Numbered from the stretch's first letter, positions 875 through 60,787 are shown. The stretch: 64,000 bases of DNA from Flavobacteriaceae bacterium (GCA_013043685.1 JABDNT010000081.1:42800-106799), one strand, 5' to 3'. Numbers and translations: made by a program. The notes: generated by a model not told the origin, from the letters alone.

Positions 875-1273
875 TCAACTTTTTAAGTCCTTAAGCTTAA
901 TTTCTTTATAGGCCTTCCATAGTCCTCCCTTTTCTGAAGCGATCATATGGTGTATTACACACGGATGGGCCTCATCACAATTATCAAAATCAAGTGCGCA
1001 TCTCTTTAAACGATCTTTACCCTCAACTTCAATTATAATATCAAGTATGGAGTGATCGAGCTGATCTTCAGTAACGTAAAATCCGCCACCGCGACCTTTA
1101 GAGGAGGATATGTAGTCTTTTGCTGAAAGTCGTTGCAGAATTTTTGATAAAAATGGTTTGGGCAACTGTAAATCATTGGAAATATCCTTCACCAGAATTT
1201 TCTGATTTTCAGAAGAATTCACGACCAGATAGCTAATGGCCCTAACCGCATATTTTGAAGATTTCGTAAGCAT
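875..1273 (-). CDS. Rrf2 family transcriptional regulator (NsrR/IscR-like)
   Basis: N-terminal wHTH MLTKSSKYAVRAISYLV. C-terminal cysteines (CALDFDNCDEAHPC) could ligate an Fe-S cluster. Transcribed divergently from the nos operon. Confidence 0.85.
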   Translation of the reverse strand: MLTKSSKYAVRAISYLVVNSSENQKILVKDISNDLQLPKPFLSKILQRLSAKDYISSSKGRGGGFYVTEDQLDHSILDIIIEVEGKDRLKRCALDFDNCDEAHPCVIHHMIASEKGGLWKAYKEIKLKDLKS

Positions 1274-1310: not shown

Positions 1311-1338
1311 TATAAAAAGATAAAAATATCTTTTTATA
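1311..1338. promoter_or_regulatory. Perfect 12-4-12 palindrome TATAAAAAGATA-AAAA-TATCTTTTTATA; candidate Rrf2 operator
   Basis: Arms are exact reverse complements. The site lies just upstream of a TATATTTG -7 box for the Rrf2 gene (complement of 1297-1304), in the divergent intergenic region. Confidence 0.45.
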
Positions 1339-1351
1339 TGATAATTGTCAT
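1338..1351. promoter_or_regulatory. Crp/Fnr-like dyad ATGAT-AATT-GTCAT (TGA-N6-TCA core)
   Basis: Dyad centre is 29.5 nt upstream of the first base of the nos -7 box. The 16-nt string TATGATAATTGTCATT recurs exactly at 52149-52164. Confidence 0.45.
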
Positions 1352-1373: not shown

Positions 1374-1381
1374 TACTTTTG
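1374..1381 (+). promoter_or_regulatory. Bacteroidota-type -7 promoter box TACTTTTG (TAnnTTTG) for the nos operon
   Basis: Exact match to the TAnnTTTG consensus, 25 nt upstream of the cytochrome c start codon. Confidence 0.4.
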
Positions 1382-1405: not shown

Positions 1406-1915
1406 ATGAAGCACATAATCAAACTATTGATGATTTTTGCCGCCGCAATTTTAATAAGCTGCGGAGGCAAAGAAGATAAAAAAGAGGATAGCATCAAACT
1501 TAGCGGTAAAAAAGAGATTAAAAAAGAACCTGCAAAGTCTGAGGCATCGTCGGACGAAGTGCCGGCCTCGGAACGAATCACCCTGGACAATAAGGGTGTT
1601 GGAGAGGTTAAAGACATGCCACTTGGCGATGAGATTGACCAGGAAATGGTGGCGCGAGGAGCAGAATTATTTAAGACCAACTGTACCGCCTGCCATAAAG
1701 TAGACAAAAGATTTATTGGTCCCTCACCGAAAGGGATCTTGAATCGCAGAAGTCCGGAATGGATCATGAACATGATTCTCGATCCTCAACTGATGGTGGA
1801 ACAGGATAGATGTGCAAAGGATCTCCTTATAGAATTTAACGGAGCAGCAATGGCTAATCAGAGTATCACCTTAGATGAAGCGAGAGATATACTTGAATAT
1901 TTTAGAACACTATAA
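1406..1915 (+). CDS. c-type cytochrome lipoprotein (likely electron donor to NosZ)
   Basis: Lipobox LISCGG and a single haem motif CTACH. First gene of the nos operon. Confidence 0.85.
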   Translation: MKHIIKLLMIFAAAILISCGGKEDKKEDSIKLSGKKEIKKEPAKSEASSDEVPASERITLDNKGVGEVKDMPLGDEIDQEMVARGAELFKTNCTACHKVDKRFIGPSPKGILNRRSPEWIMNMILDPQLMVEQDRCAKDLLIEFNGAAMANQSITLDEARDILEYFRTL

Positions 1916-1923
1916 ACAACATT

Positions 1924-2499
1924 ATGAAAACTAATAACCTTAAATTTTTACTCATTTCTTGTATAAGTATCTTATTCTTATTGGGATGTAAAAACGAAAA
2001 TAAACAAGATAACTCCACGGTAGGATCTGATACCACTTCAGAGAATAAAGAAGAAGGACAAGCCTTTATCGAAGATGATGAAGCAGTTCCTAATGTTCTT
2101 CAAATCGCAATTGGTTCACCAGATCATACCACGTTGGTAGCAGCTGTACAAGCCGCAGATCTGGAGAATGTCTTGGTAAATGCAGGACCTTTAATGGTCT
2201 TTGCTCCTACTAATGCGGCCTTCGATGCCCTTCCAGATGGTACAGTTGATAACCTTTTGAAACCCGAAAACAAAGGCGATTTAGCACTAATCCTGAAGCA
2301 TCATGTAACTCCGGGTAATTACTCGAAGGATTTTTTGAAAAAATTCAAAAAACTCGGACAAGCCAGTGATCTGAATACCACAGTCGAAGTTAAGGACGGT
2401 GAGGTCTACGTGGGAGGGGCCAAAATACTGGCAAGTATTCCTGCAGGAAATGGTATCGTGCACGTTGTTGACGCAGTTATCTTACCACCTGCTAACTAA
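1924..2499 (+). CDS. Fasciclin (FAS1) domain lipoprotein
   Basis: Lipobox LLGC. FAS1 signatures HTTLVAAVQAADL, GPLMVFAPTNAAFDALP and NGIVHVVDAVILP. Confidence 0.85.
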   Translation: MKTNNLKFLLISCISILFLLGCKNENKQDNSTVGSDTTSENKEEGQAFIEDDEAVPNVLQIAIGSPDHTTLVAAVQAADLENVLVNAGPLMVFAPTNAAFDALPDGTVDNLLKPENKGDLALILKHHVTPGNYSKDFLKKFKKLGQASDLNTTVEVKDGEVYVGGAKILASIPAGNGIVHVVDAVILPPAN

Positions 2500-2520
2500 T
2501 CATAATCTAAACAAATCAAA

Positions 2521-4482
2521 ATGAAGAAATCAAATTATTTTTTTGTTACTGTACTGGCTCTATCCTTAATTATGTCTGGATGCCAACAGGGCACAAATAA
2601 GTCGAGCAACGGAGCGCTGGCTTCCAGCGCGGCTGAAAAAGTGTACGTAGCTCCTGGAGAACAGGATGAGTTTTATGCATTTTTATCCGGTGGATATAGT
2701 GGAAACCTAACGGTTTATGGACTACCCTCCGGAAGAATGTTCAAGGAAATTCCGGTATTCTCCCAATTTCCGACCTCCGGTTATGGATATTCAGAAGAAA
2801 CCAAGCCGATGCTGAACACCTCTCACGGTTTTATTCCCTGGGATGACCTTCACCACCCTGATATTTCACAAACAAACGGTGAATTGGATGGTCGATGGAT
2901 CTTTGTGAACGGCAACAATACTCCTCGTATAGCGAGGATCAGCCTTGCAACTTTCGAAACTGAGGAAATCATTGAAATACCAAATAGTGCAGGTAACCAC
3001 AGTTCTGCTTTCATCACTGAAAACACAGAATATGTAATCGCAGGTACTCGATTTGCAGTTCCTGTTCCGCAAAGAGATATGCCAATCAACGAATATAAAG
3101 GGAATTTTAAAGGTGCCTTAAGCTTTATTAGTGTAGATCAGGAAAGCGGTCGTTTAGATCTAAAATTCCAGATTATGATGCCAGGTTTCAACTATGACCT
3201 TTCGCATCCGGGGCGCGGCGCATCTCACGGCTGGCATTTCTTCAGCACCTATAATACAGAAGAGGCCAATTCGCTGATGGAAGTCAATTCGTCACAAAAC
3301 GACAAAGACTTTATCGCAGCGATTAACTGGAAAAAGTTTGAGGAATATGTGAACAATGGCGGAGGCTCAAAAATGGCGACAAATTATGCACATAATGTAT
3401 ATGACGATCGCACACATACAGGAACCTCAACGATGGTGAAAGAGGTTGTCACCGTCGATCCAACACAAGTTCCAGGCGCAGTGTTCTTTTTGCCAACACC
3501 AAAATCTCCTCATGGCTGTGATGTAGATCCGTCAGGGGAATACATCATTGGTGCAGGAAAGCTGTCTGCCGATCTTACGATTCACTCCTTTACAAAAATG
3601 TTGGAGGCCATTGAAAACGAAAAGTTTGATGGAGAGGCCTATGGAATTCCTATTCTAAAATACGAGGATGTAATGGCAGGGGTAGTAAAAAGTGGTGGCC
3701 TCGGTCCATTGCACACGGAATTCGACGGTAAAGGCAATGCTTATACAACATTCTTTATTTCTTCAGAGGTTGTAAAATGGGAATTGGGAACCTGGGAAGT
3801 AATTGATAGAAAACCTACATATTACTCGGTCGGGCATTTGATGATCCCCGGTGGTAACTCTCGTAAGCCTTTTGGAAAATATGTTGTAGCCATGAATAAA
3901 ATCACAAAAGACCGCTACTTGCCAACCGGTCCTGAAATGGAGCACTCGGCTCAGATATATGATATCTCTGGTGAGAAAATGCAATTGCTCTATGATTTCC
4001 CAACACATGGGGAACCTCACTATGCAGCGGGTTGCCCTGCTGAACTGTTGGCTTCCAAATCACAAAAGATCTATAGACTGGATGAGAACGAGCACCCTTA
4101 TGCTGTAGCCAATCCATCTGAAGCAAGGGTAGAACGCGATGGAAACGAAGTACATATTTACATGAGTACGATACGTAGTCACTTTACCCCAGACAATATC
4201 GAAGGTGTAAAGGTAGGTGACAAAGTGTACTTCCATATTACGAATCATGAGCAAGATTTTGATGTACCTCACGGATTTTCAATTATTGGTCAAAATACTT
4301 CAGAACTGTTGATTATGCCAGGGCAAACCAAATCCTCGCTCTGGGAGCCTAAACAGGTTGGCGTGTGGCCATTCTATTGTACCGATTTCTGCTCCGCTCT
4401 GCACCAGGAAATGCAAGGATATGTGAGAGTTTCTCCTGCATCTTCTAATATTGAATTATCCTGGTCGCTCGGTGAAGATTAG
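2521..4482 (+). CDS. nosZ: Nitrous-oxide reductase, Sec-dependent (clade II)
   Basis: 653 aa. CuA site at the C-terminus (HGFSI...WPFYCTDFCSALHQEMQGYVRV). N-terminus MKKSNYFFVTVLALSLIMSGC has no twin-arginine motif. Confidence 0.97.
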   Translation: MKKSNYFFVTVLALSLIMSGCQQGTNKSSNGALASSAAEKVYVAPGEQDEFYAFLSGGYSGNLTVYGLPSGRMFKEIPVFSQFPTSGYGYSEETKPMLNTSHGFIPWDDLHHPDISQTNGELDGRWIFVNGNNTPRIARISLATFETEEIIEIPNSAGNHSSAFITENTEYVIAGTRFAVPVPQRDMPINEYKGNFKGALSFISVDQESGRLDLKFQIMMPGFNYDLSHPGRGASHGWHFFSTYNTEEANSLMEVNSSQNDKDFIAAINWKKFEEYVNNGGGSKMATNYAHNVYDDRTHTGTSTMVKEVVTVDPTQVPGAVFFLPTPKSPHGCDVDPSGEYIIGAGKLSADLTIHSFTKMLEAIENEKFDGEAYGIPILKYEDVMAGVVKSGGLGPLHTEFDGKGNAYTTFFISSEVVKWELGTWEVIDRKPTYYSVGHLMIPGGNSRKPFGKYVVAMNKITKDRYLPTGPEMEHSAQIYDISGEKMQLLYDFPTHGEPHYAAGCPAELLASKSQKIYRLDENEHPYAVANPSEARVERDGNEVHIYMSTIRSHFTPDNIEGVKVGDKVYFHITNHEQDFDVPHGFSIIGQNTSELLIMPGQTKSSLWEPKQVGVWPFYCTDFCSALHQEMQGYVRVSPASSNIELSWSLGED

Positions 4483-4533
4483 TTTGATTTTGAATTGGAA
4501 ATACTTATTGATTAGTGATTAATAATATTTCCT

Positions 4534-4563
4534 GAAGGCGGAAGTGAATCGACTTCCGCCTTC
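4534..4563 (+). promoter_or_regulatory. 12-bp perfect stem-loop GAAGGCGGAAGT-gaatcg-ACTTCCGCCTTC after nosZ, without a U-tract
   Basis: Arms are exact reverse complements. No T-run follows on either strand. Confidence 0.5.
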
Positions 4564-4621
4564 TCACTAAAAAATTGCTGTCACGGAGCTTTAATATGCT
4601 CATATCCATAATTAAATTTCA

Positions 4622-5269
4622 ATGAAAAAAGCTAGTATTATTATGATGGTTGGTCCCCTGTTCTTGATGGGGTTGTATGTATTTCCATTATGGACCATTA
4701 TGCTCGGAGCCCCCCAGTATCCAGATCCACTGGGCATGAACATTCATATCGATGGCATACAGGGAGTCAATGAGTTCGATATCCAGAATATCGACGGGCT
4801 AAATCACTACATAGGAATGAAGACTCTACCCAAACCTGAAGAAATGTGGGAGTTTAGTACGTTCCCTTTAGTTATAGGGATCATGATTGGGCTAGGGGTA
4901 TTGATTGGGCTACTGGGGTTCTTTAAAAAAGTAAATTATAAATGGTTTATTGGTTGGTTCATCTTTATGTCAATACTTGGAGTTTTGGGGATGTATGATT
5001 TCAATGCCTGGATGGTAGACTACGGCACAAATTTAGATCCAAACGCCATAATGAAACTTGCAAATCCGGACGGAACACCTATGACTTACAAACCACCATT
5101 ATTCGGGCATACTAAAATGCTGAATTTCGATGTTACCTCTTTACCTGCTACAGGGGCATGGTTGATGTTCACTGGAATGTTACTAACCATAGTTGCCTCC
5201 GTGGTTGGATGGAGAAATCGAAAGGCACCACATGTCAAAAACCCCGTGAAATCGCAACATCATGAATAA
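4622..5269 (+). CDS. Polytopic membrane protein in the position occupied by NosB in clade II nos clusters
   Basis: Several hydrophobic helices. Lies immediately downstream of nosZ and overlaps the nosL start by 8 nt. The family assignment rests on position only. Confidence 0.6.
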   Translation: MKKASIIMMVGPLFLMGLYVFPLWTIMLGAPQYPDPLGMNIHIDGIQGVNEFDIQNIDGLNHYIGMKTLPKPEEMWEFSTFPLVIGIMIGLGVLIGLLGFFKKVNYKWFIGWFIFMSILGVLGMYDFNAWMVDYGTNLDPNAIMKLANPDGTPMTYKPPLFGHTKMLNFDVTSLPATGAWLMFTGMLLTIVASVVGWRNRKAPHVKNPVKSQHHE

Positions 5270-5693
5270 GTTCTTACTTATCCCATTAGTCGCTACGCTC
5301 CTGTGTTGCGCGATCGGACCTTCGAAAATTGCATACGGAGAACAAGCCTGCCATTTCTGCCGGATGACCATCGTTGATAAACAGCATGCTGCACAATTGA
5401 TAACCGACAAGGGCAAAGTATTCAATTTCGATGCTTCAGAATGTATGATCAACTATATCACCGGAATTGATCGAGAGAACATTGGCTTGTTGTTAGTTAC
5501 AGACTATAATAACCCGGAGTCCCTCATCGAAGTTGAAACAGCGACTTTTATAATTTCTGAAGATATGCCCAGCCCAATGGGTGCTAATCTTTCCGCTATT
5601 GGCACACTGGCCGAAGCCCAGCAGTTGATTCAGGATAAACAAGGCAAACTTTACAACTGGAATGAATTACTACAATATTTTAAAAATCTCTGA
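5262..5693 (+). CDS. nosL: Copper chaperone lipoprotein NosL
   Basis: Motif ACHFCRMTIVDKQHAAQLITDKGKVFNFDASECM and SPMG, typical of NosL. Lies within the nos operon. Confidence 0.85.
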   Translation: MNKFLLIPLVATLLCCAIGPSKIAYGEQACHFCRMTIVDKQHAAQLITDKGKVFNFDASECMINYITGIDRENIGLLLVTDYNNPESLIEVETATFIISEDMPSPMGANLSAIGTLAEAQQLIQDKQGKLYNWNELLQYFKNL

Positions 5694-5694
5694 T

Positions 5695-5988
5695 ATGTTC
5701 AGCATTGAAAAACAAATCAAAGAAACTTCCTTTGAAGGACTATCCGTTCAGAAAATATTCAAAAACGAGAACGCAGAAACACTTCTGATCACTTTGGAAA
5801 AGAACTATGAGTTTCCCGAGCATAGCTCCCCGCGGGATGCTTTTTTGGTGATGCTTGAAGGAAGTGTAATTTTTACAATTCAGAACACAGATTATGCATT
5901 AAATTGCTCAGATTCTTTTACCTTTCCTGCTGAAGAACCACATAAAGTTTACGCTAAAGAAAATTCGAAATTTTTAATCATCAGATAA
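5695..5988 (+). CDS. Cupin domain protein
   Basis: ORF 5662..5988 trimmed to the in-frame ATG at 5695, 2 nt after the nosL stop. Small beta-barrel pattern: FPEHSSPRDAFLVMLEGSV...PAEEPHKV. Confidence 0.6.
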   Translation: MFSIEKQIKETSFEGLSVQKIFKNENAETLLITLEKNYEFPEHSSPRDAFLVMLEGSVIFTIQNTDYALNCSDSFTFPAEEPHKVYAKENSKFLIIR

Positions 5989-6004
5989 CCGATCCAACAT
6001 CACA

Positions 6005-7255
6005 TTGAAGTTTTTTCGATACATAACAATAATAATAGTGTTGTTGGCGGGTAAATCTGTGCCTGCAAAAACCATTGAAGTATGCAAAAAATGCACTTAC
6101 AGTGAAATCGGCAAGGCAGTAGAGGCGGCTAATGATTACGATACCGTTTTGGTGAGAAAAGGAACCTATAAGGAAGTCAATATATTAATAGACAAACCCC
6201 TTGTACTAAAAGGAGAAAACTACCCGGTTATCGATGGCGAACTTAAAGGGGAGATCATCACCATTACTTCCGATGATGTTACGGTGGACGGACTATTCAT
6301 TATCAATGTTGGCACGAGTTATACTGTTGATTATGCCGCAGTACGGGTTATTAAAAGTAAGAACTTCCTTATACAGAATTTGGTCCTGGAAAAACTCTTC
6401 TTCGGAATTTACCTTGAAAAGTCTGAAAATGGCCGTGTGTACCATAACAACATAATAGGCGATGCTGAAGAGGAATACAACTCGGGCAACGGGATTCAGC
6501 TATGGTACAGTAAAAATATTGAAATAGAGCAAAATATTATCTCTCATGTTCGCGATGGTATATATCTGGAATTCGCAGACGATTGTATCATAAAGAACAA
6601 TATCAGTTCCAACAACGTGCGTTACGGCCTCCATTTCATGTTTTCCAACAACGACATATATTCCAACAATACCTTCGAAAATAATGGAGCCGGTGTTGCG
6701 GTGATGTTTTCTAAAGAGATTAAGATGTACAACAATGTATTCAGGGATAATTGGGGATCGGCGGCATATGGGATGTTACTGAAGGAAATAAATGATTCGG
6801 AGATCATGGGTAATACTTTCCAGGAAAATACTGTAGGAATTAATATTGAAGGGTCCAATCGTATTACTTATTCCAATAACGACTTTATACGCAATGGTTG
6901 GGCTATTAAATCGAGAGGGGCTTGTTATGCCAACCTTTTTACTGAAAATAATTTCCTTTACAACTCCTTCGATCTTTCCTATAACAGCAAATTAAACGAC
7001 AATAAGTTCGAGAAAAATTACTGGAGTAATTACGCAGGTTATGACCTCGACAAGGATGGAATAGGAGATGTTCCGTATCGTCCCGTAAAGTTATTCTCTT
7101 ACGTGGTGAACAGAACTCCGGAAGCCATTATTTTACTACGAAGTCTTTTTACCGATATTATTGATTTTTCTGAAAAGGTGTCTCCGGTTTTTACGCCTGA
7201 TAACCTTCTAGATATCCAACCGAAAATGAAACAAATCGTCCATGATCGAAATTAG
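6005..7255 (+). CDS. nosD: Nitrous-oxide reductase maturation protein NosD (periplasmic parallel beta-helix)
   Basis: TTG start. Repeated NN.I..N..G beta-helix repeats. Located between nosL and nosF. Confidence 0.9.
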   Translation: MKFFRYITIIIVLLAGKSVPAKTIEVCKKCTYSEIGKAVEAANDYDTVLVRKGTYKEVNILIDKPLVLKGENYPVIDGELKGEIITITSDDVTVDGLFIINVGTSYTVDYAAVRVIKSKNFLIQNLVLEKLFFGIYLEKSENGRVYHNNIIGDAEEEYNSGNGIQLWYSKNIEIEQNIISHVRDGIYLEFADDCIIKNNISSNNVRYGLHFMFSNNDIYSNNTFENNGAGVAVMFSKEIKMYNNVFRDNWGSAAYGMLLKEINDSEIMGNTFQENTVGINIEGSNRITYSNNDFIRNGWAIKSRGACYANLFTENNFLYNSFDLSYNSKLNDNKFEKNYWSNYAGYDLDKDGIGDVPYRPVKLFSYVVNRTPEAIILLRSLFTDIIDFSEKVSPVFTPDNLLDIQPKMKQIVHDRN

Positions 7256-7952
7256 GGGACTTTATAAGAAGTACGGCAAGAACGAGGTGCTGAAAGGTGT
7301 AGATCTCGCGATCGAGGAAAAGAAGATCGTGGCGGTATTGGGGCCCAATGGTTCTGGGAAGACCACCTTTATAAAAAGTATACTGGGCATGGTCTTGCCC
7401 AGCAAGGGGGATATTATAATGGAAGGAAAGTCCATTAAAAAAGAATGGAAATACCGCAATAACATAGATTATTTGCCTCAGATCGCCAATTTTCCGAATA
7501 ACCTTACGGTGAAAGAACTCATCAATATGATCAAGGATCTTCGACAAAAAAAATCTGCAGATGACGGTGCACTGGTGGAACTCTTTAAGCTTGAGCCATT
7601 TTTGAACAAGAAGCTGGGAAATCTTTCCGGTGGGACGAAGCAAAAAGTGAATATCCTACTCACTTTTATGTTCGACAGCCCCATCATAATCCTCGATGAG
7701 CCAACATCCGGTCTCGATCCTATTTCACTGATTCGCCTGAAAGAACTAATAGATACCGAAAAAAAGAAAGGGAAGACCATTATCATTACTTCCCATATCA
7801 TGAATTTTGTAGAAGAAGTAGCCGATGAAATTGTTTTTCTACTGGAAGGTAAGATCTATTTCAAAGGAAGTATTTCAGAATTAAAGGAGAAAACGAACCA
7901 ACCCGATTTCGAACACGCGATCGCATCCATCTTAACGCAATCCTATGCTTAA
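7242..7952 (+). CDS. nosF: ABC transporter ATP-binding protein NosF
   Basis: Walker A GPNGSGKTT, signature LSGGTKQK, Walker B IIILDEPTSGLD. Overlaps nosD by 14 nt. Confidence 0.9.
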   Translation: MIEIRGLYKKYGKNEVLKGVDLAIEEKKIVAVLGPNGSGKTTFIKSILGMVLPSKGDIIMEGKSIKKEWKYRNNIDYLPQIANFPNNLTVKELINMIKDLRQKKSADDGALVELFKLEPFLNKKLGNLSGGTKQKVNILLTFMFDSPIIILDEPTSGLDPISLIRLKELIDTEKKKGKTIIITSHIMNFVEEVADEIVFLLEGKIYFKGSISELKEKTNQPDFEHAIASILTQSYA

Positions 7953-8727
7953 AATACTGAAATACAGCTTTTACGATCTTATGCGAAGCCGCTGGAGCTA
8001 TGTTTATTTCGTATTTTATTTAGTCCTTGGATTTGTACTGCTATTTCTTAATAACAACGTATCGAAAGCCGTGATCACCCTAATGAATGTGATCATTATC
8101 CTGGTGCCCCTTATCGGGACCATTTTTGGCGTGATGTATTACTATAATTCAAAAGAATTTACGGGGCTACTTTTGGCGCAACCCATAAAACGTTCCTTGA
8201 TTTTCCTGGGACAATACCTGGGTGTAGCACTTTCTTTATCCATGAGCCTGATCATCGGGTTGGGTATTCCGTTTATTCTCTACGGAATATTCCGTTCGGA
8301 TGCCATCTGGGATTTCTCCTTGCTTTTGATCACCGGAACCTTCCTCACCCTTATATTCACAGCATTGTCTTTCAATATTGCGCTCAGCAACGAGAACAGG
8401 ATCAAGGGATTCGGCTACGCTATTTTACTATGGTTGTTTATGGCCGTGATCTACGACGGTATCTTCCTGATGTCCCTGATGATCTTCGAGGACTATCCTT
8501 TGGATACATTCTCACTAACTGCTACGATGTTCAATCCCATAGATCTTTCCCGGGTATTAATATTACTCAAACTGGATATTTCAGCATTGATGGGCTATAC
8601 CGGGGCCTTGTTTCAGAAATTCTTTGGAACCAATTTTGGAATGTTCCTGTCTATTGGCATACTCATTCTCTGGGTTGTGATCCCCGCCTGGTTTATTGAG
8701 CGAAAAGCTAACCGTAAAGATTTTTAG
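7945..8727 (+). CDS. nosY: ABC-2 type permease NosY
   Basis: Polytopic membrane protein overlapping nosF by 8 nt. Canonical nosDFY order. Confidence 0.85.
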   Translation: MLKILKYSFYDLMRSRWSYVYFVFYLVLGFVLLFLNNNVSKAVITLMNVIIILVPLIGTIFGVMYYYNSKEFTGLLLAQPIKRSLIFLGQYLGVALSLSMSLIIGLGIPFILYGIFRSDAIWDFSLLLITGTFLTLIFTALSFNIALSNENRIKGFGYAILLWLFMAVIYDGIFLMSLMIFEDYPLDTFSLTATMFNPIDLSRVLILLKLDISALMGYTGALFQKFFGTNFGMFLSIGILILWVVIPAWFIERKANRKDF

Positions 8728-50085: not shown

Positions 50086-51450
50086 CTAGAAACTTATTAC
50101 GGATTCTATTACGACTCCGTTAAATTTCCCTTCGTTAAACTGACTTCCTTCTGGGAAATCACTATATTCCTGATTTACATACTCGATCTTAGCAAGAACA
50201 TTCTTTGTAAAGAACACACCTGCGCCAATATTGAAGCGGTTAATAGTTACATCACTTGTCATCCCGCGCATCTCTCCTGAAGCGGTATTGTAACGACCAC
50301 CTACGTAGAAGTTTTCATTATTACCGAATCGATAAAGTACTTCCGCCATAATATGCGTCCAGTTTCTGTCTGTATTGTTACCCGAAGCATCAAATTCTGA
50401 ATCAGCTCGACCTGTTGTTGTTTCGAACAAACCAAAGAATTCAAGACCTTGATATTTAACAAATGGGTTAATCATAATGGCTGTAACTTCATTGGTAAAG
50501 CCCGGATCAATCCTACCTGATGTAAAGTATCCTCGACCACCTGAAGAGGCATTGGCATCTTCCATTACGAAATAGTATCGAGAACCTCCCCGGTCTGCAC
50601 CATAGAGATATACCCTGGCAGTATGAGCAGTGTTGTAAACAGATCCAGTTAATCTCAACCTGAGATCATCACTAAGCTGCTTGTCCCATCCCAGTTTTCC
50701 AACCAAAGTAGGAGAAGTAGTTTCCGGGTTACTCACCGCCTGGTTCAATTTACCATTATACAATCCAACCATGGCAAGCCATCCATTATTACGATAATAG
50801 AACTCTCCACCCACTTCCTGGGCAAATCCGTCAAGTAGTGTGTTTCCTACGAATGGGTTATAAATGGATTGAGCATTATCAGAACGTCTGAAATGCTGGT
50901 CACCGTAGTTAACTTCCATGTGTCCGATCTTAACCGTCACCTTGTCCATTACATCACCTAGTAATCCTTCCTGAATCCAGTTAAGATTATCTACTTGGAT
51001 ATAACCTCCTTTTACCCATGCTTCCGGGTGGTGACGGGAAGATAAATAGGTACGTAAGTGCATACGCAGTCCATCATGAAGTTCCACATCCAAATCAAGG
51101 TTAGCAGTGGCCAGGTTAAAGTTGGATCCGATTTCCTTTAAAGGAAGATTTGCATTTCCACCCATGCCGTCATCGCTAAACCAAGGACTGCCGGGCATGA
51201 TTGTGCTCTCAGCCGGACGACCATTCTCATGGTCAATGGCCTGGAATTGAAGGGTGGAGGAACCACCGATTCTTACACGAACGCCGTCGAATGCTTTGAT
51301 CACAGCCGTATCTTTAGGCGATTCAAAGACATTAATACCCTCCTTAGAAGGTTCTCTGTAGTTGTTCAGACTACGTTTATTCTGAGCATAGACAGAAACA
51401 ACGCTGAACATAATAATTAAGACTAGTAGTTGTTTTATTAGGTGTTTCAT
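50086..51450 (-). CDS. Porin-like outer membrane beta-barrel protein
   Basis: Signal peptide, alternating beta pattern and a C-terminal aromatic residue (VISF). Overlaps the YceI gene by 4 nt. Confidence 0.6.
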   Translation of the reverse strand: MKHLIKQLLVLIIMFSVVSVYAQNKRSLNNYREPSKEGINVFESPKDTAVIKAFDGVRVRIGGSSTLQFQAIDHENGRPAESTIMPGSPWFSDDGMGGNANLPLKEIGSNFNLATANLDLDVELHDGLRMHLRTYLSSRHHPEAWVKGGYIQVDNLNWIQEGLLGDVMDKVTVKIGHMEVNYGDQHFRRSDNAQSIYNPFVGNTLLDGFAQEVGGEFYYRNNGWLAMVGLYNGKLNQAVSNPETTSPTLVGKLGWDKQLSDDLRLRLTGSVYNTAHTARVYLYGADRGGSRYYFVMEDANASSGGRGYFTSGRIDPGFTNEVTAIMINPFVKYQGLEFFGLFETTTGRADSEFDASGNNTDRNWTHIMAEVLYRFGNNENFYVGGRYNTASGEMRGMTSDVTINRFNIGAGVFFTKNVLAKIEYVNQEYSDFPEGSQFNEGKFNGVVIESVISF

Positions 51451-52061
51451 AACACTATAAAGTTTAAGTTAAAGACAATTGTTATATCATTTCCAGTTTT
51501 TAATGTTCCGAGCAAAGCCGTGGGTGGTTCTACATCATAGTCGGTCATTTTCATCGGCTTACTTCCTTTAATATTTAAAATTCCATCCTTCAGTTCAATA
51601 TCAACATCAATATTCACCGGTTTTACAACCCCGGCGATATCCAACGAACCATTTAAACTTGCTTTAAACTTAGAATTTCCATTTTTAGAAATGGAATTAA
51701 TTTTTTTGAAACGATAAATAATATTTGGATAGTTCTCATGTTTTAATGCGTTGTAACACTTTTTATCCATTATCCTTTTTCCACTTTTCAGAGTGGTTAC
51801 ACCTACCTTGATATTTATATGTTCAAGATTTATAGAATTATCACCATCGTTGTATTCGAGCTTTCCATTACAGGCATTTGAGATCATTTCCCAATCGTGG
51901 AGTGAAGAAGTTCCTTGAATCACAAAACTGGATGTCAAAGGATCACATGCAAGTGATTTTAATGCCATTTCTGGTTCTATTTCTGCAGCGGACTGGGCTT
52001 GAAGAGTATTTACCTGGATTAGGATCAGCAGGATTGCCACTAGGGATTTCAATATCCTCAT
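51447..52061 (-). CDS. YceI family (polyisoprenoid-binding-like) periplasmic protein
   Basis: Signal peptide. GTSSLHDWEM and IKGSKPMKMTDYDVEPP patterns are typical of YceI-like proteins. Confidence 0.7.
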   Translation of the reverse strand: MRILKSLVAILLILIQVNTLQAQSAAEIEPEMALKSLACDPLTSSFVIQGTSSLHDWEMISNACNGKLEYNDGDNSINLEHINIKVGVTTLKSGKRIMDKKCYNALKHENYPNIIYRFKKINSISKNGNSKFKASLNGSLDIAGVVKPVNIDVDIELKDGILNIKGSKPMKMTDYDVEPPTALLGTLKTGNDITIVFNLNFIVL

Positions 52062-52087
52062 TGATTTTTTGTTTGTAACTTTTGATA

Positions 52088-52095
52088 CAAAACTA
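52088..52095 (-). promoter_or_regulatory. -7 promoter box TAGTTTTG (TAnnTTTG) for the YceI-porin operon
   Basis: Exact consensus match on the minus strand, 27 nt upstream of the start codon. Confidence 0.4.
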
Positions 52096-52117
52096 TGTTT
52101 GGTTTTAGAAATGATTT

Positions 52118-52131
52118 ATGACGATTATCAT
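52118..52131. promoter_or_regulatory. Crp/Fnr-like dyad (minus-strand reading ATGAT-AATC-GTCAT), promoter-proximal
   Basis: One nucleotide different from the nos-promoter dyad. Centre is 29.5 nt from the first base of the -7 box, the same as at nos. Confidence 0.45.
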
Positions 52132-52149
52132 AAACTCCTGATATTCTTT

Positions 52150-52163
52150 ATGATAATTGTCAT
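52150..52163. promoter_or_regulatory. Second Crp/Fnr-like dyad ATGATAATTGTCAT, promoter-distal
   Basis: Identical on the plus strand to 1338-1351. Centre is 32 bp upstream of the proximal site. Confidence 0.4.
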
Positions 52164-52476
52164 TGTTTTTGTTATAATTTCTATTAAGACTGTTAAATCT
52201 AAATTGACTCATGCGTCACATTCACATTAGTTTCTATTAGAGATGGTGTAAGAGCATAGAATTGAATGTAATCTGCATTCTACAATTCAGCCAATATAAA
52301 TGCATTGTTGAATTCAATTAACCCATGAGGAGTGATTATGTCAGCCGATTTCTACACGAATTATGAAATGGCTAACGGATAAGATGAATCAACAACAATT
52401 GTGGAGTTCGGCTCAGACTGGCCTGTAGAATCAAATGAAAGAATATCCACCGTGAATTATGAGCCTCAACGAATTC

Positions 52477-52857
52477 TTACTTAAAAAGCGGTTTGTAGGA
52501 ATCCCATCTTCTAACTATAAGCAACACGTTTATAAGCCCTACAACATATGCAGGCCAAGCTTTCGAGAATTCTCCATTTGAAATACTGAAGATGAGAAAA
52601 GCAACAGATAATGGAGCCAGAACAATAAGGATAAAGGCGGTCCACTTATTGAAGATCAGAAACAACCCGATAATTATCTCAAAAATATACAAGGCGGGTA
52701 GATAGATCGCTACAGAGTCTAAAAAATCCTGCGTTACCTCAGGCATTGCACCGTAACTGGAAGGTAGAAAATGAAAAAACCTATTAAGGGCGTACAGAAT
52801 CAAAAAGAGTCCGAGGGCGGTTCTTGCAACCATGAAGAGTGAGTCGTTTTTTTTCAT
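52477..52857 (-). CDS. DoxX family membrane protein
   Basis: Four TM helices, 126 aa. Pattern resembles DoxX, recognised by eye. Confidence 0.55.
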   Translation of the reverse strand: MKKNDSLFMVARTALGLFLILYALNRFFHFLPSSYGAMPEVTQDFLDSVAIYLPALYIFEIIIGLFLIFNKWTAFILIVLAPLSVAFLIFSISNGEFSKAWPAYVVGLINVLLIVRRWDSYKPLFK

Positions 52858-53082
52858 AATTTGTATGTTAGGTATAAGTAATGTGATTGCTTATTATTGG
52901 TAAAAATGTAAGTATTTAAGAAAATTTTCATGTTAAAAATCAAGCTACAGTCTGTTTATCAGAATGTTAAATTAAGCTTTGCCTTTTAAATCCAATATGA
53001 TTTATATCATGACCACAATATATAACCTAATTCGAAAACCCATCACTCCACAAAAATATCAGCTGAAAATTAATCCGAAAAA

Positions 53083-60277: not shown

Positions 60278-60360
60278 AATTCACTTTTTAAATGCAAATT
60301 AATTAAGAAAAACTAACGGAATATCAAATGATCAAAGTCATTTACAGAGAAAAATTTAAA

Positions 60361-60560: not shown

Positions 60561-60787
60561 TAGTCAGGCTATTGTTCCCAGTTAATAACCGTCACAATGA
60601 TCAATATCATTGCTTAGTTTTTTAGTATACAGTAATTTAATTGCTTGTAAGTCTGTACTTCTCTCCTCCTCAGACAGCTGTGCTATCTCCTCCATAAAAT
60701 TCAAAGAGTTCATTCTCAGAAATGATGCATTGAACGCTCTGATATTTATGTGGGTATAGCTTGAATCTAATCTATAAACAATGAGTT

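Follow-up and report, generated by a model that had tools for sequence, protein, structure and literature searches.

The closest described counterpart of the regulatory arrangement reported here is the control of nosRZDFYLX in Bradyrhizobium diazoefficiens, in which the haem-PAS kinase FixL stands on top of a cascade, FixJ joins a receiver to a LuxR-type HTH, and the Crp/Fnr dimer FixK2 binds a TTGA-N6-TCAA-type box some 40.5-41.5 bp upstream of the start; the FixK2 box of nosR is centred at -40.5 and is essential for expression (PMC5582078). Escherichia coli FNR, which senses O2 through an N-terminal [4Fe-4S] cluster, acts on genes of anaerobic respiration from TGA-N6-TCA sites of 5-4-5 layout, centred at -41.5 in class II and tandem promoters, some of which carry a second upstream site on the same helix face. 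In Mycobacterium tuberculosis, the haem kinases DosS and DosT sense through GAF domains and, together with the response regulator DosR (DevR), switch on universal stress protein (Usp), ferredoxin and ribosome-stasis genes at low O2. Regulators of the NsrR/IscR type within the Rrf2 family provide a fourth comparison, being encoded beside denitrification genes. Bacteroidota with clade II nosZ are regarded as important sinks of N2O, and to our knowledge the switching of their nos genes is essentially unstudied. The only statement on nos control in these organisms that we found in the literature is the remark, from metagenome work, that Rrf2 genes adjoin clade II nos clusters (PMC6264515).

We analysed a window of 64,000 nucleotides (C25:42800-106799) from the genome of a marine flavobacterium of the genus Aureitalea, whose assembly comprises 3.0 Mb in 83 contigs and is 97.7% complete. 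A sequence-only reading of this window had described a 14-bp dyad in front of a clade II nos operon and two such dyads in front of a yceI operon some 50 kb away, and had proposed that one regulator controls both as a nos co-regulon. On re-reading the sequence, the dyad strings and their positions were correct (Table 1). All three are inverted repeats with the core TGA-N6-TCA in a 5-4-5 layout, and the nos dyad sits between the Rrf2 gene and the first gene of the nos operon, which encodes cytochrome c. The proximal yceI dyad, read in gene orientation, differs from the nos dyad by a single mismatch, as claimed, and the distance from dyad centre to the first base of the -7 box is indeed 29.5 nt at both promoters. 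The distal yceI dyad lies 32 bp further up (centre to centre, about three helical turns), and its plus-strand string is that of the nos site, with the 16-mer TATGATAATTGTCATT common to 1337-1352 (nos) and 52149-52164 (yceI distal). As yceI is encoded on the minus strand, the distal dyad is inverted relative to its gene; such inversion is unimportant for a near-palindrome, and the 16 identical nucleotides carry no orientation information.

Table 1. Positions of boxes, promoter elements and genes (window numbering unless a contig is given)
Feature	Position	Strand	Remarks
Rrf2-family regulator gene, divergent from nos	875-1273	-	Pfam PF02082, 1.4e-21; TIGR00738, 3e-23
Second palindrome, TATAAAAAGATA-AAAA-TATCTTTTTATA	1311-1338	.	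Perfect 12-4-12; core RGAYA-N4-TRTCY
nos-promoter box, ATGATAATTGTCAT (TGAY-N4-RTCA)	1338-1351	.	Putative class II activator site, centre near -41.5
nos operon -7 promoter box, TACTTTTG	1374-1381	+	
Clade II nos operon	1406-8727	+	
Cytochrome c gene, first of nos operon	1406-1915	+	
Fasciclin gene, nos operon	1924-2499	+	
NosZ	2521-4482	+	
Membrane protein, NosL and cupin genes		+	After NosZ in nos operon
Putative NosD	6005-7255	+	Named by operon position only
Putative NosF	7242-7952	+	Named by operon position only
Putative NosY	7945-8727	+	Named by operon position only
454-aa outer-membrane protein gene	50086-51450	-	Start overlaps yceI stop (ATGA)
YceI-like periplasmic protein gene	51447-52061	-	Pfam PF04264, 4.8e-12
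yceI operon -7 promoter box, TAGTTTTG	52088-52095	-	
yceI proximal box, ATGATAATCGTCAT (gene orientation)	52118-52131	.	Putative class II site near -41.5
yceI distal box, ATGATAATTGTCAT	52150-52163	.	Putative upstream class I-like site near -73.5
DoxX-like gene, adjoins yceI	52477-52857	-	Weak Pfam match, 1.5e-3
Candidate extra box, ATGATTTATATCAT (19 bits)	52997-53010	.	140 nt upstream of DoxX-like gene; poor -7 box TAATTTAA at expected offset
Weaker candidate box	60328-60341		Same 510-bp spacer as next box
Candidate extra box, ATGATCAATATCAT (17 bits)	60597-60610	.	510-bp spacer; degenerate -7 box
RR1	C79:74290-75351		353 aa, one open frame; Response_reg + cNMP_binding + HTH_Crp_2
RR1 kinase	C79:75348-76577		PAS + HisKA + HATPase_c
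FadL-like outer-membrane protein gene	C79:89648-90973		Divergent from type III sulfide:quinone reductase
RR2, paralogue of RR1	C79:108592-109659		Response_reg + cNMP_binding + HTH_Crp_2

We then examined how often the dyad and its spacing occur. Allowing up to two mismatches, the window holds 8 matches against 1.44 expected, a number reached by none of 100 shuffles. Across the genome, the strict form ATGAYAATTRTCAT occurs in only 3 places, and 14 of the 17 sites with at most one mismatch are intergenic, though only about 9% of the genome is non-coding. Distances between all TGA-N6-TCA cores and all TAnnTTTG boxes, tabulated for the whole genome, show a sharp peak of 23 cases at exactly 29.5 nt, with about 1.5 cases (1-3) at each of the other offsets; a further peak, at -11.5, is an artefact that arises where the two patterns overlap. 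From 140 positioned sites in related genomes we built a weight matrix, which gave the profile aaa(C/A)TGAYwwwTRTCATwnTTT, with the box consensus (A/C)TGAY-wwwT-RTCAT, and at a cut-off of at least 14 bits it found 45 intergenic matches in this genome (expected: 3.0 from shuffled intergenic sequence, 1.9 from a first-order Markov model). The view that the dyads are unlikely to have arisen by chance thus holds both in the window (8 versus 1.44) and in the genome (45 versus 2-3), and random intergenic DNA does not carry the motif at a comparable frequency.

The notion that the dyad merely reflects the AT-richness of promoter DNA by chance, or else is a general promoter element, would suit an AT-rich motif in intergenic DNA of 35% G+C, but we give it next to no credence: composition-matched shuffles and Markov sequences yield 2-3 sites where 45 are observed, the 23 positioned boxes precede different genes and make up only a small fraction of promoters, and orthologous promoters keep the half-sites but differ in the central 4 bp. 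Taken together with the consensus (A/C)TGAY-N4-RTCAT, the dyads are predicted to be real operators of FNR/FixK type for a dimeric Crp/Fnr-family activator. A Fur, Zur or PerR box, considered on account of GATAAT-like strings, was rejected: genes for the uptake of iron or other metals are not what the boxes precede, and conservation falls on TGA and TCA.

Conservation across genomes followed the same pattern. The nos box, together with its 29.5-nt spacing to TAnnTTTG, is kept in 24 of 25 nosZ-carrying genomes of the same family in the form ATGAY-N4-RTCAT, its half-sites conserved and its central bases varying freely; the 25th genome has TTAATTTG at that offset. Two genomes of another family had no such box. 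At yceI, 18 of 21 genomes (>15 genera) retain a box with TTTG at this same offset, and each of the six Aureitalea yceI loci (G000, G001, G003, G005, G006 and G007) has the pair of boxes 32 bp apart, again with variable central bases. Among the seven other Aureitalea genomes, the nos box is kept in all and the yceI boxes in five.

In Flavobacterium psychrophilum, the sigma-A -7 box (TAnnTTTG) lies at -12 to -5 (PMC9723704). If the -7 boxes here occupy that interval, the proximal dyads would be centred at -41.5 and the distal yceI dyad at -73.5, positions that carry over the promoter geometry of another flavobacterium; the proximal nos and yceI boxes would accordingly stand at the class II activator position. 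The box itself spans about -48 to -35, and the -33 TTTG element has no recognisable copy at its usual place. That the spacing does not vary by a single nucleotide at 23 promoters, and is held across genera, speaks for an activator that touches the polymerase directly. The same regulator could in principle repress, with the box covering the -33 region and the block being relieved by phosphorylation or O2, as the overlap of the box with the place of the -33 TTTG element would allow and as FNR and CRP do repress at some promoters. We consider repression unlikely, since fixed spacing is a hallmark of activation whereas repressor sites are variable in position, and since these promoters have no recognisable -33 TTTG to cover. 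The FixK2 box at nosR is, moreover, required for expression (PMC5582078).

Which protein would act as the activator was addressed through the Crp/Fnr-family genes of the genome, of which there are three, two on contig C79 and one on C41. The two on C79, RR1 and RR2, encode receiver-Crp/Fnr fusions and are the second genes of operons opened by a histidine kinase, the kinase genes overlapping or abutting them upstream. Their receiver domains (PF00072, 3e-29 and 8.6e-26), with the motifs IEDD, VCDIMMPE, LSAKT and TKPF, hold the acidic pair, the phospho-acceptor Asp, the Ser/Thr and the Lys that define a two-component response regulator. The recognition helix reads T-E-S-L-I-R in RR1, with T-E-S/T-L/A-I-R as the form common to RR1 and RR2, and these are the only Crp/Fnr proteins of the genome with an FNR-like E-x-x-x-R recognition helix. 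In CRP, FNR and FixK2, the Glu and Arg of this helix (E209 and R213 in FNR) read TGA, and R180 of CRP demands GTGA. The RR1 helix has the Glu and the Arg and lacks an equivalent of R180, which fits a TGA without a preceding G. Assignment of the dyads to the Crp/Fnr family, as the sequence-only reading had suggested, therefore agrees both with the TGAY-N4-RTCA motif and with the FNR-like helices of RR1 and RR2. By sequence, RR1 and RR2 are not distinguishable as binders of the boxes, and with an assembly of 83 contigs at 97.7% completeness a further regulator gene may have been missed.

Gene linkage connects the box with RR1. Relatives of RR1 number at least 545 in a collection scan and include proteins of Aquimarina, Altibacter, Aequorivita, Dokdonia, Maribacter and Arenibacter. 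Of 80 Flavobacteriaceae loci retrieved, 76 have a positioned box directly after the RR1 stop codon and before a Usp gene, and in about 20 of these 80 a further box lies upstream of the kinase gene; comparative genomics ordinarily assigns motifs to regulators on such linkage. In the present genome, boxes lie upstream of both kinase operons (C79:76613 and C79:111029), and eight positioned boxes cluster around them. The boxes might instead be read by the third protein, a classical Crp/Fnr protein of 210 aa encoded at C41:17922-18554, the fusions then controlling neighbouring Usp genes or something else. We regard this as improbable: the C41 product is a true cNMP_binding + HTH_Crp_2 protein, but its helix, S-R-V-V-I-S-R, is without the Glu by which CRP, FNR and FixK2 contact the G of TGA, its gene shows no genomic linkage to any box (its own upstream region being cut off by the contig end), and it is more distant from the box-linked regulators than these are from the Cys-rich Fnr of other genera.

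We also searched for a classical Cys-rich Fnr and found none in this genome or in the genus Aureitalea. RR1 has a single Cys, situated in the receiver domain; where E. coli FNR carries the cysteines of its [4Fe-4S] cluster in an N-terminal group, RR1 has no such cluster and has a receiver domain. The genus has receiver-Crp/Fnr fusions beside kinases and no classical Fnr, yet the nos and yceI boxes persist, and in 6 of 7 other Aureitalea genomes a single RR1 orthologue is the only such protein. Several relatives, in turn, keep the nos and yceI boxes without a fusion and carry a Crp/Fnr protein of about 225 aa with four conserved Cys (MSxCEQC...YCV...GIC) and the same helix as the fusion type, TATES(A/L)IR. 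Both regulator types accompany the boxes, which are therefore no exclusive mark of the fusion type, and the two types are not separable by linkage alone; the box would be an ancestral flavobacterial Fnr box readable by fusion and Cys-rich Fnr types alike. Since Aureitalea retains the boxes with the fusion type only, RR1 is the best candidate regulator here. At loci L075-L082, from other genera, the Fnr-like protein of about 225 aa has a C-x2-C near its N-terminus followed by a C-x5-C, unlike E. coli FNR; its gene is frequently located some 20 kb away from nosZ, and Aureitalea does not have it.

The kinase encoded with RR1 offers a candidate signal. The top 14 solved-structure matches of its PAS domain are the haem-PAS domains of FixL, DosP or EcDOS (1.2e-15 to 6.5e-11; best 1d06). 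A proximal His and a distal Arg are the residues with assigned roles in the FixL haem-PAS. In the RR1 kinase, a His matches the proximal His of FixL in the alignment, where G-H-G-R also stands opposite G-I-G-R, the Arg lying 20 residues later. We therefore designate it a putative FixL-like haem-PAS oxygen sensor. The RR2 kinase has no FixL-like PAS and a different sensor, so some sites may answer to another signal. At the operon of the FixL-like kinase (C79:76577-76640), only 4 nt separate the end of the -7 box from the annotated ATG, and the spacing of the box is 30.5 nt, not 29.5, a value that recurs in about 20 other genera; the 4-nt gap and this spacing suggest that the mRNA is leaderless or that autoregulation uses a special class of promoter.

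We consider it probable that the boxes are class II activator sites of FNR/FixK type, serving a regulon of about 45 sites, and that the RR1 fusion binds them in response to low O2 through its FixL-like kinase. At low O2, the deoxy-haem kinase would be active and would phosphorylate RR1, and phosphorylated RR1 would bind the boxes and activate nos, the yceI/outer-membrane protein operon and the other targets. Such a route would amount to a one-step version of the rhizobial FixL-FixJ-FixK cascade, with which it would have in common a haem-PAS kinase on top, a Crp/Fnr dimer acting at a box near -41 and an N2O reductase target. It differs from the B. diazoefficiens system in that receiver and Crp/Fnr portions are joined in one polypeptide, with neither a separate FixJ nor a cascade, in the flanks of its boxes (TTGA...TCAA there, (A/C)TGAY...RTCAT here), in its Bacteroidota promoters of -7/-33 type and in a clade II nos operon without nosR. 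With no separate FixJ that activates a separate fixK, it would work like FixLJ-FixK but is not a member of that system. To E. coli FNR it is comparable in layout, predicted position and the tandem arrangement at yceI, as well as in its respiratory targets. The resemblance to DosS/DosT-DosR lies in a putative haem kinase and response regulator placed over Usp, ferredoxin and ribosome-stasis genes, whereas DosR has a LuxR-type output domain and another box, and its sensors are GAF, not PAS.

The Rrf2 gene beside nos called for separate consideration. An NsrR/IscR-like Rrf2 protein that binds the 14-bp dyad would make nos and yceI a small NO-/N2O-specific co-regulon, and the gene lies only 65 bp from the nos dyad. 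Its product has three cysteines in translation (C92, C99 and C105), which could hold an Fe-S cluster, as is typical of Fe-S Rrf2 sensors, and Rrf2 genes have been noted by clade II nos clusters (PMC6264515). We nonetheless hold this reading to be very improbable. Most of the roughly 45 intergenic sites of the box have no relation to nitrogen oxides, and the box is tied to receiver-Crp genes in 76 of 80 loci; it is kept at nos in some genera (G014 and G027) where the upstream region resembles a terminator, not the start of a divergent gene; and a TGA-N6-TCA core in 5-4-5 layout is what Crp/Fnr proteins typically bind, unlike Rrf2 proteins. A local Rrf2 operator is better matched by the second, conserved and near-unique palindrome beside the box. 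Situated directly upstream of the nos box, this palindrome has a core that recurs at an unchanged position in about 20 genera, and its strict pattern has one intergenic site in the genome, the nos one. The yceI promoter has no RGAYA-N4-TRTCY palindrome. A three-Cys Rrf2 gene divergent from nos with a conserved palindrome in the shared region thus recalls the NsrR/IscR-type arrangement at denitrification genes, but that palindrome is distinct from the 14-bp dyad, and it is more likely than the dyad to be the nos-specific candidate operator of the adjacent Rrf2 protein. About 31 kb before the window start, at C25:11412-11445, the only other AGATA-N4-TATCT palindrome located about 20 bp upstream of a positioned Fnr-type box precedes a 458-aa gene without family match; this composite may be a second target of nos-type dual control.

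We also considered what the boxes precede. Canonical geometry is found in front of two tandem-Usp proteins, the ribosome hibernation factor (S30AE), a P-type ATPase, the Hox-type NAD-linked NiFe hydrogenase, the uptake NiFe hydrogenase (with a TAACTTTT box), ferredoxin, a TauE exporter, pyruvate phosphate dikinase, glutamate dehydrogenase, methionine gamma-lyase, MlaE and the FadL-like outer-membrane protein, as well as nos and yceI. The type III sulfide:quinone reductase encoded divergently from the FadL-like protein also counts among the targets. Judged by gene content, the predicted target set is that of a typical low-oxygen regulon (respiration and energy) with a stasis component (Usp and hibernation factor), which points to a general low-oxygen and stress programme and not to N2O respiration specifically. 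A shared regulator for nos and yceI, as the sequence-only reading proposed, is very probable, but the description as a nos co-regulon is wrong: at least 23 promoters have the same box and spacing, with about 45 intergenic sites in all, and identity of sequence and geometry therefore does not single out these two operons. The interpretation given in the sequence-only reading is partly supported, nos and yceI probably sharing a regulator as members of a global low-oxygen regulon of about 45 sites.

Several observations bear on the genomic setting of the boxes. The region C79:70000-114000 is a dense island with at least eight positioned boxes; it contains the two kinase + receiver-Crp operons, Usp genes, the hibernation factor, TauE, sulfide:quinone reductase, the FadL-like outer-membrane protein, the uptake and Hox NiFe hydrogenases with hyp genes, and the P-type ATPase. 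At C48:51382-51600, a canonical box and -7 box precede a remnant of about 55 codons beside the cbb3 oxidase (cco) cluster. The remnant joins N-terminal (NLPGPRYTSYPT) and C-terminal motifs of hemN, and looks like an internally deleted hemN pseudogene that has retained its Fnr-type promoter. The ccoNO gene of the cbb3 oxidase, also considered as a target, runs off the end of C48.

At the yceI operon, the YceI label given to the first gene is confirmed by its Pfam match. The protein encoded next to it, of 454 aa, has no Pfam match, shows a sub-threshold match to LbtU-type siderophore porins (6e-6) and is named 'outer membrane protein' in one database source, so that the label 'porin' is plausible. 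Its gene follows yceI in about 19 related loci (41-94% identity) and is better conserved than YceI. This conserved order and the box at yceI mark the two genes as a conserved two-gene module and a core member of the regulon. We looked for a paralogous relationship between the 454-aa protein and the FadL-like regulon member and found no similarity. No other known target in this genome has two boxes in tandem, and their separation by three helical turns at yceI suggests synergistic (tandem) activation. The window contains additional candidate boxes. One, 140 nt upstream of the DoxX-like gene that adjoins yceI, has a poor -7 box at the expected offset, and the DoxX-like gene may or may not belong to the regulon; two more share a single spacer (Table 1).

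The operator type is known, and the regulator architecture and its role in Bacteroidota are without description in the literature searched, which contained no account of this regulon or of receiver-Crp/Fnr fusions in that phylum. Two items that came up in the search, RgzAB of F. johnsoniae (a preprint) and a CRP/FNR meta-regulon paper, are unrelated to this regulon. For clade II nosZ Bacteroidota, the analysis would supply a model for the whole family, in which the operator is defined, the activator geometry is fixed, a FixL-like kinase and a receiver-Crp/Fnr fusion are the candidate regulators, and nos has a second operator specific to it. It would also give a low-oxygen context to the YceI/outer-membrane protein pair, which is widespread and functionally obscure. 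It is a tentative proposal, and one that we would hold with considerable doubt, that a one-step fusion switch of this type, and not an Fe-S Fnr or NosR, gates consumption of the greenhouse gas N2O in Aureitalea and probably in many marine Flavobacteriaceae, that in Aureitalea the fusion took over the entire ancestral Fnr regulon, and that low-oxygen or N2O respiration requires the YceI/outer-membrane protein pair as an envelope accessory. If this is true, the pair may, for instance, traffic isoprenoid quinone or another lipid across the periplasm.
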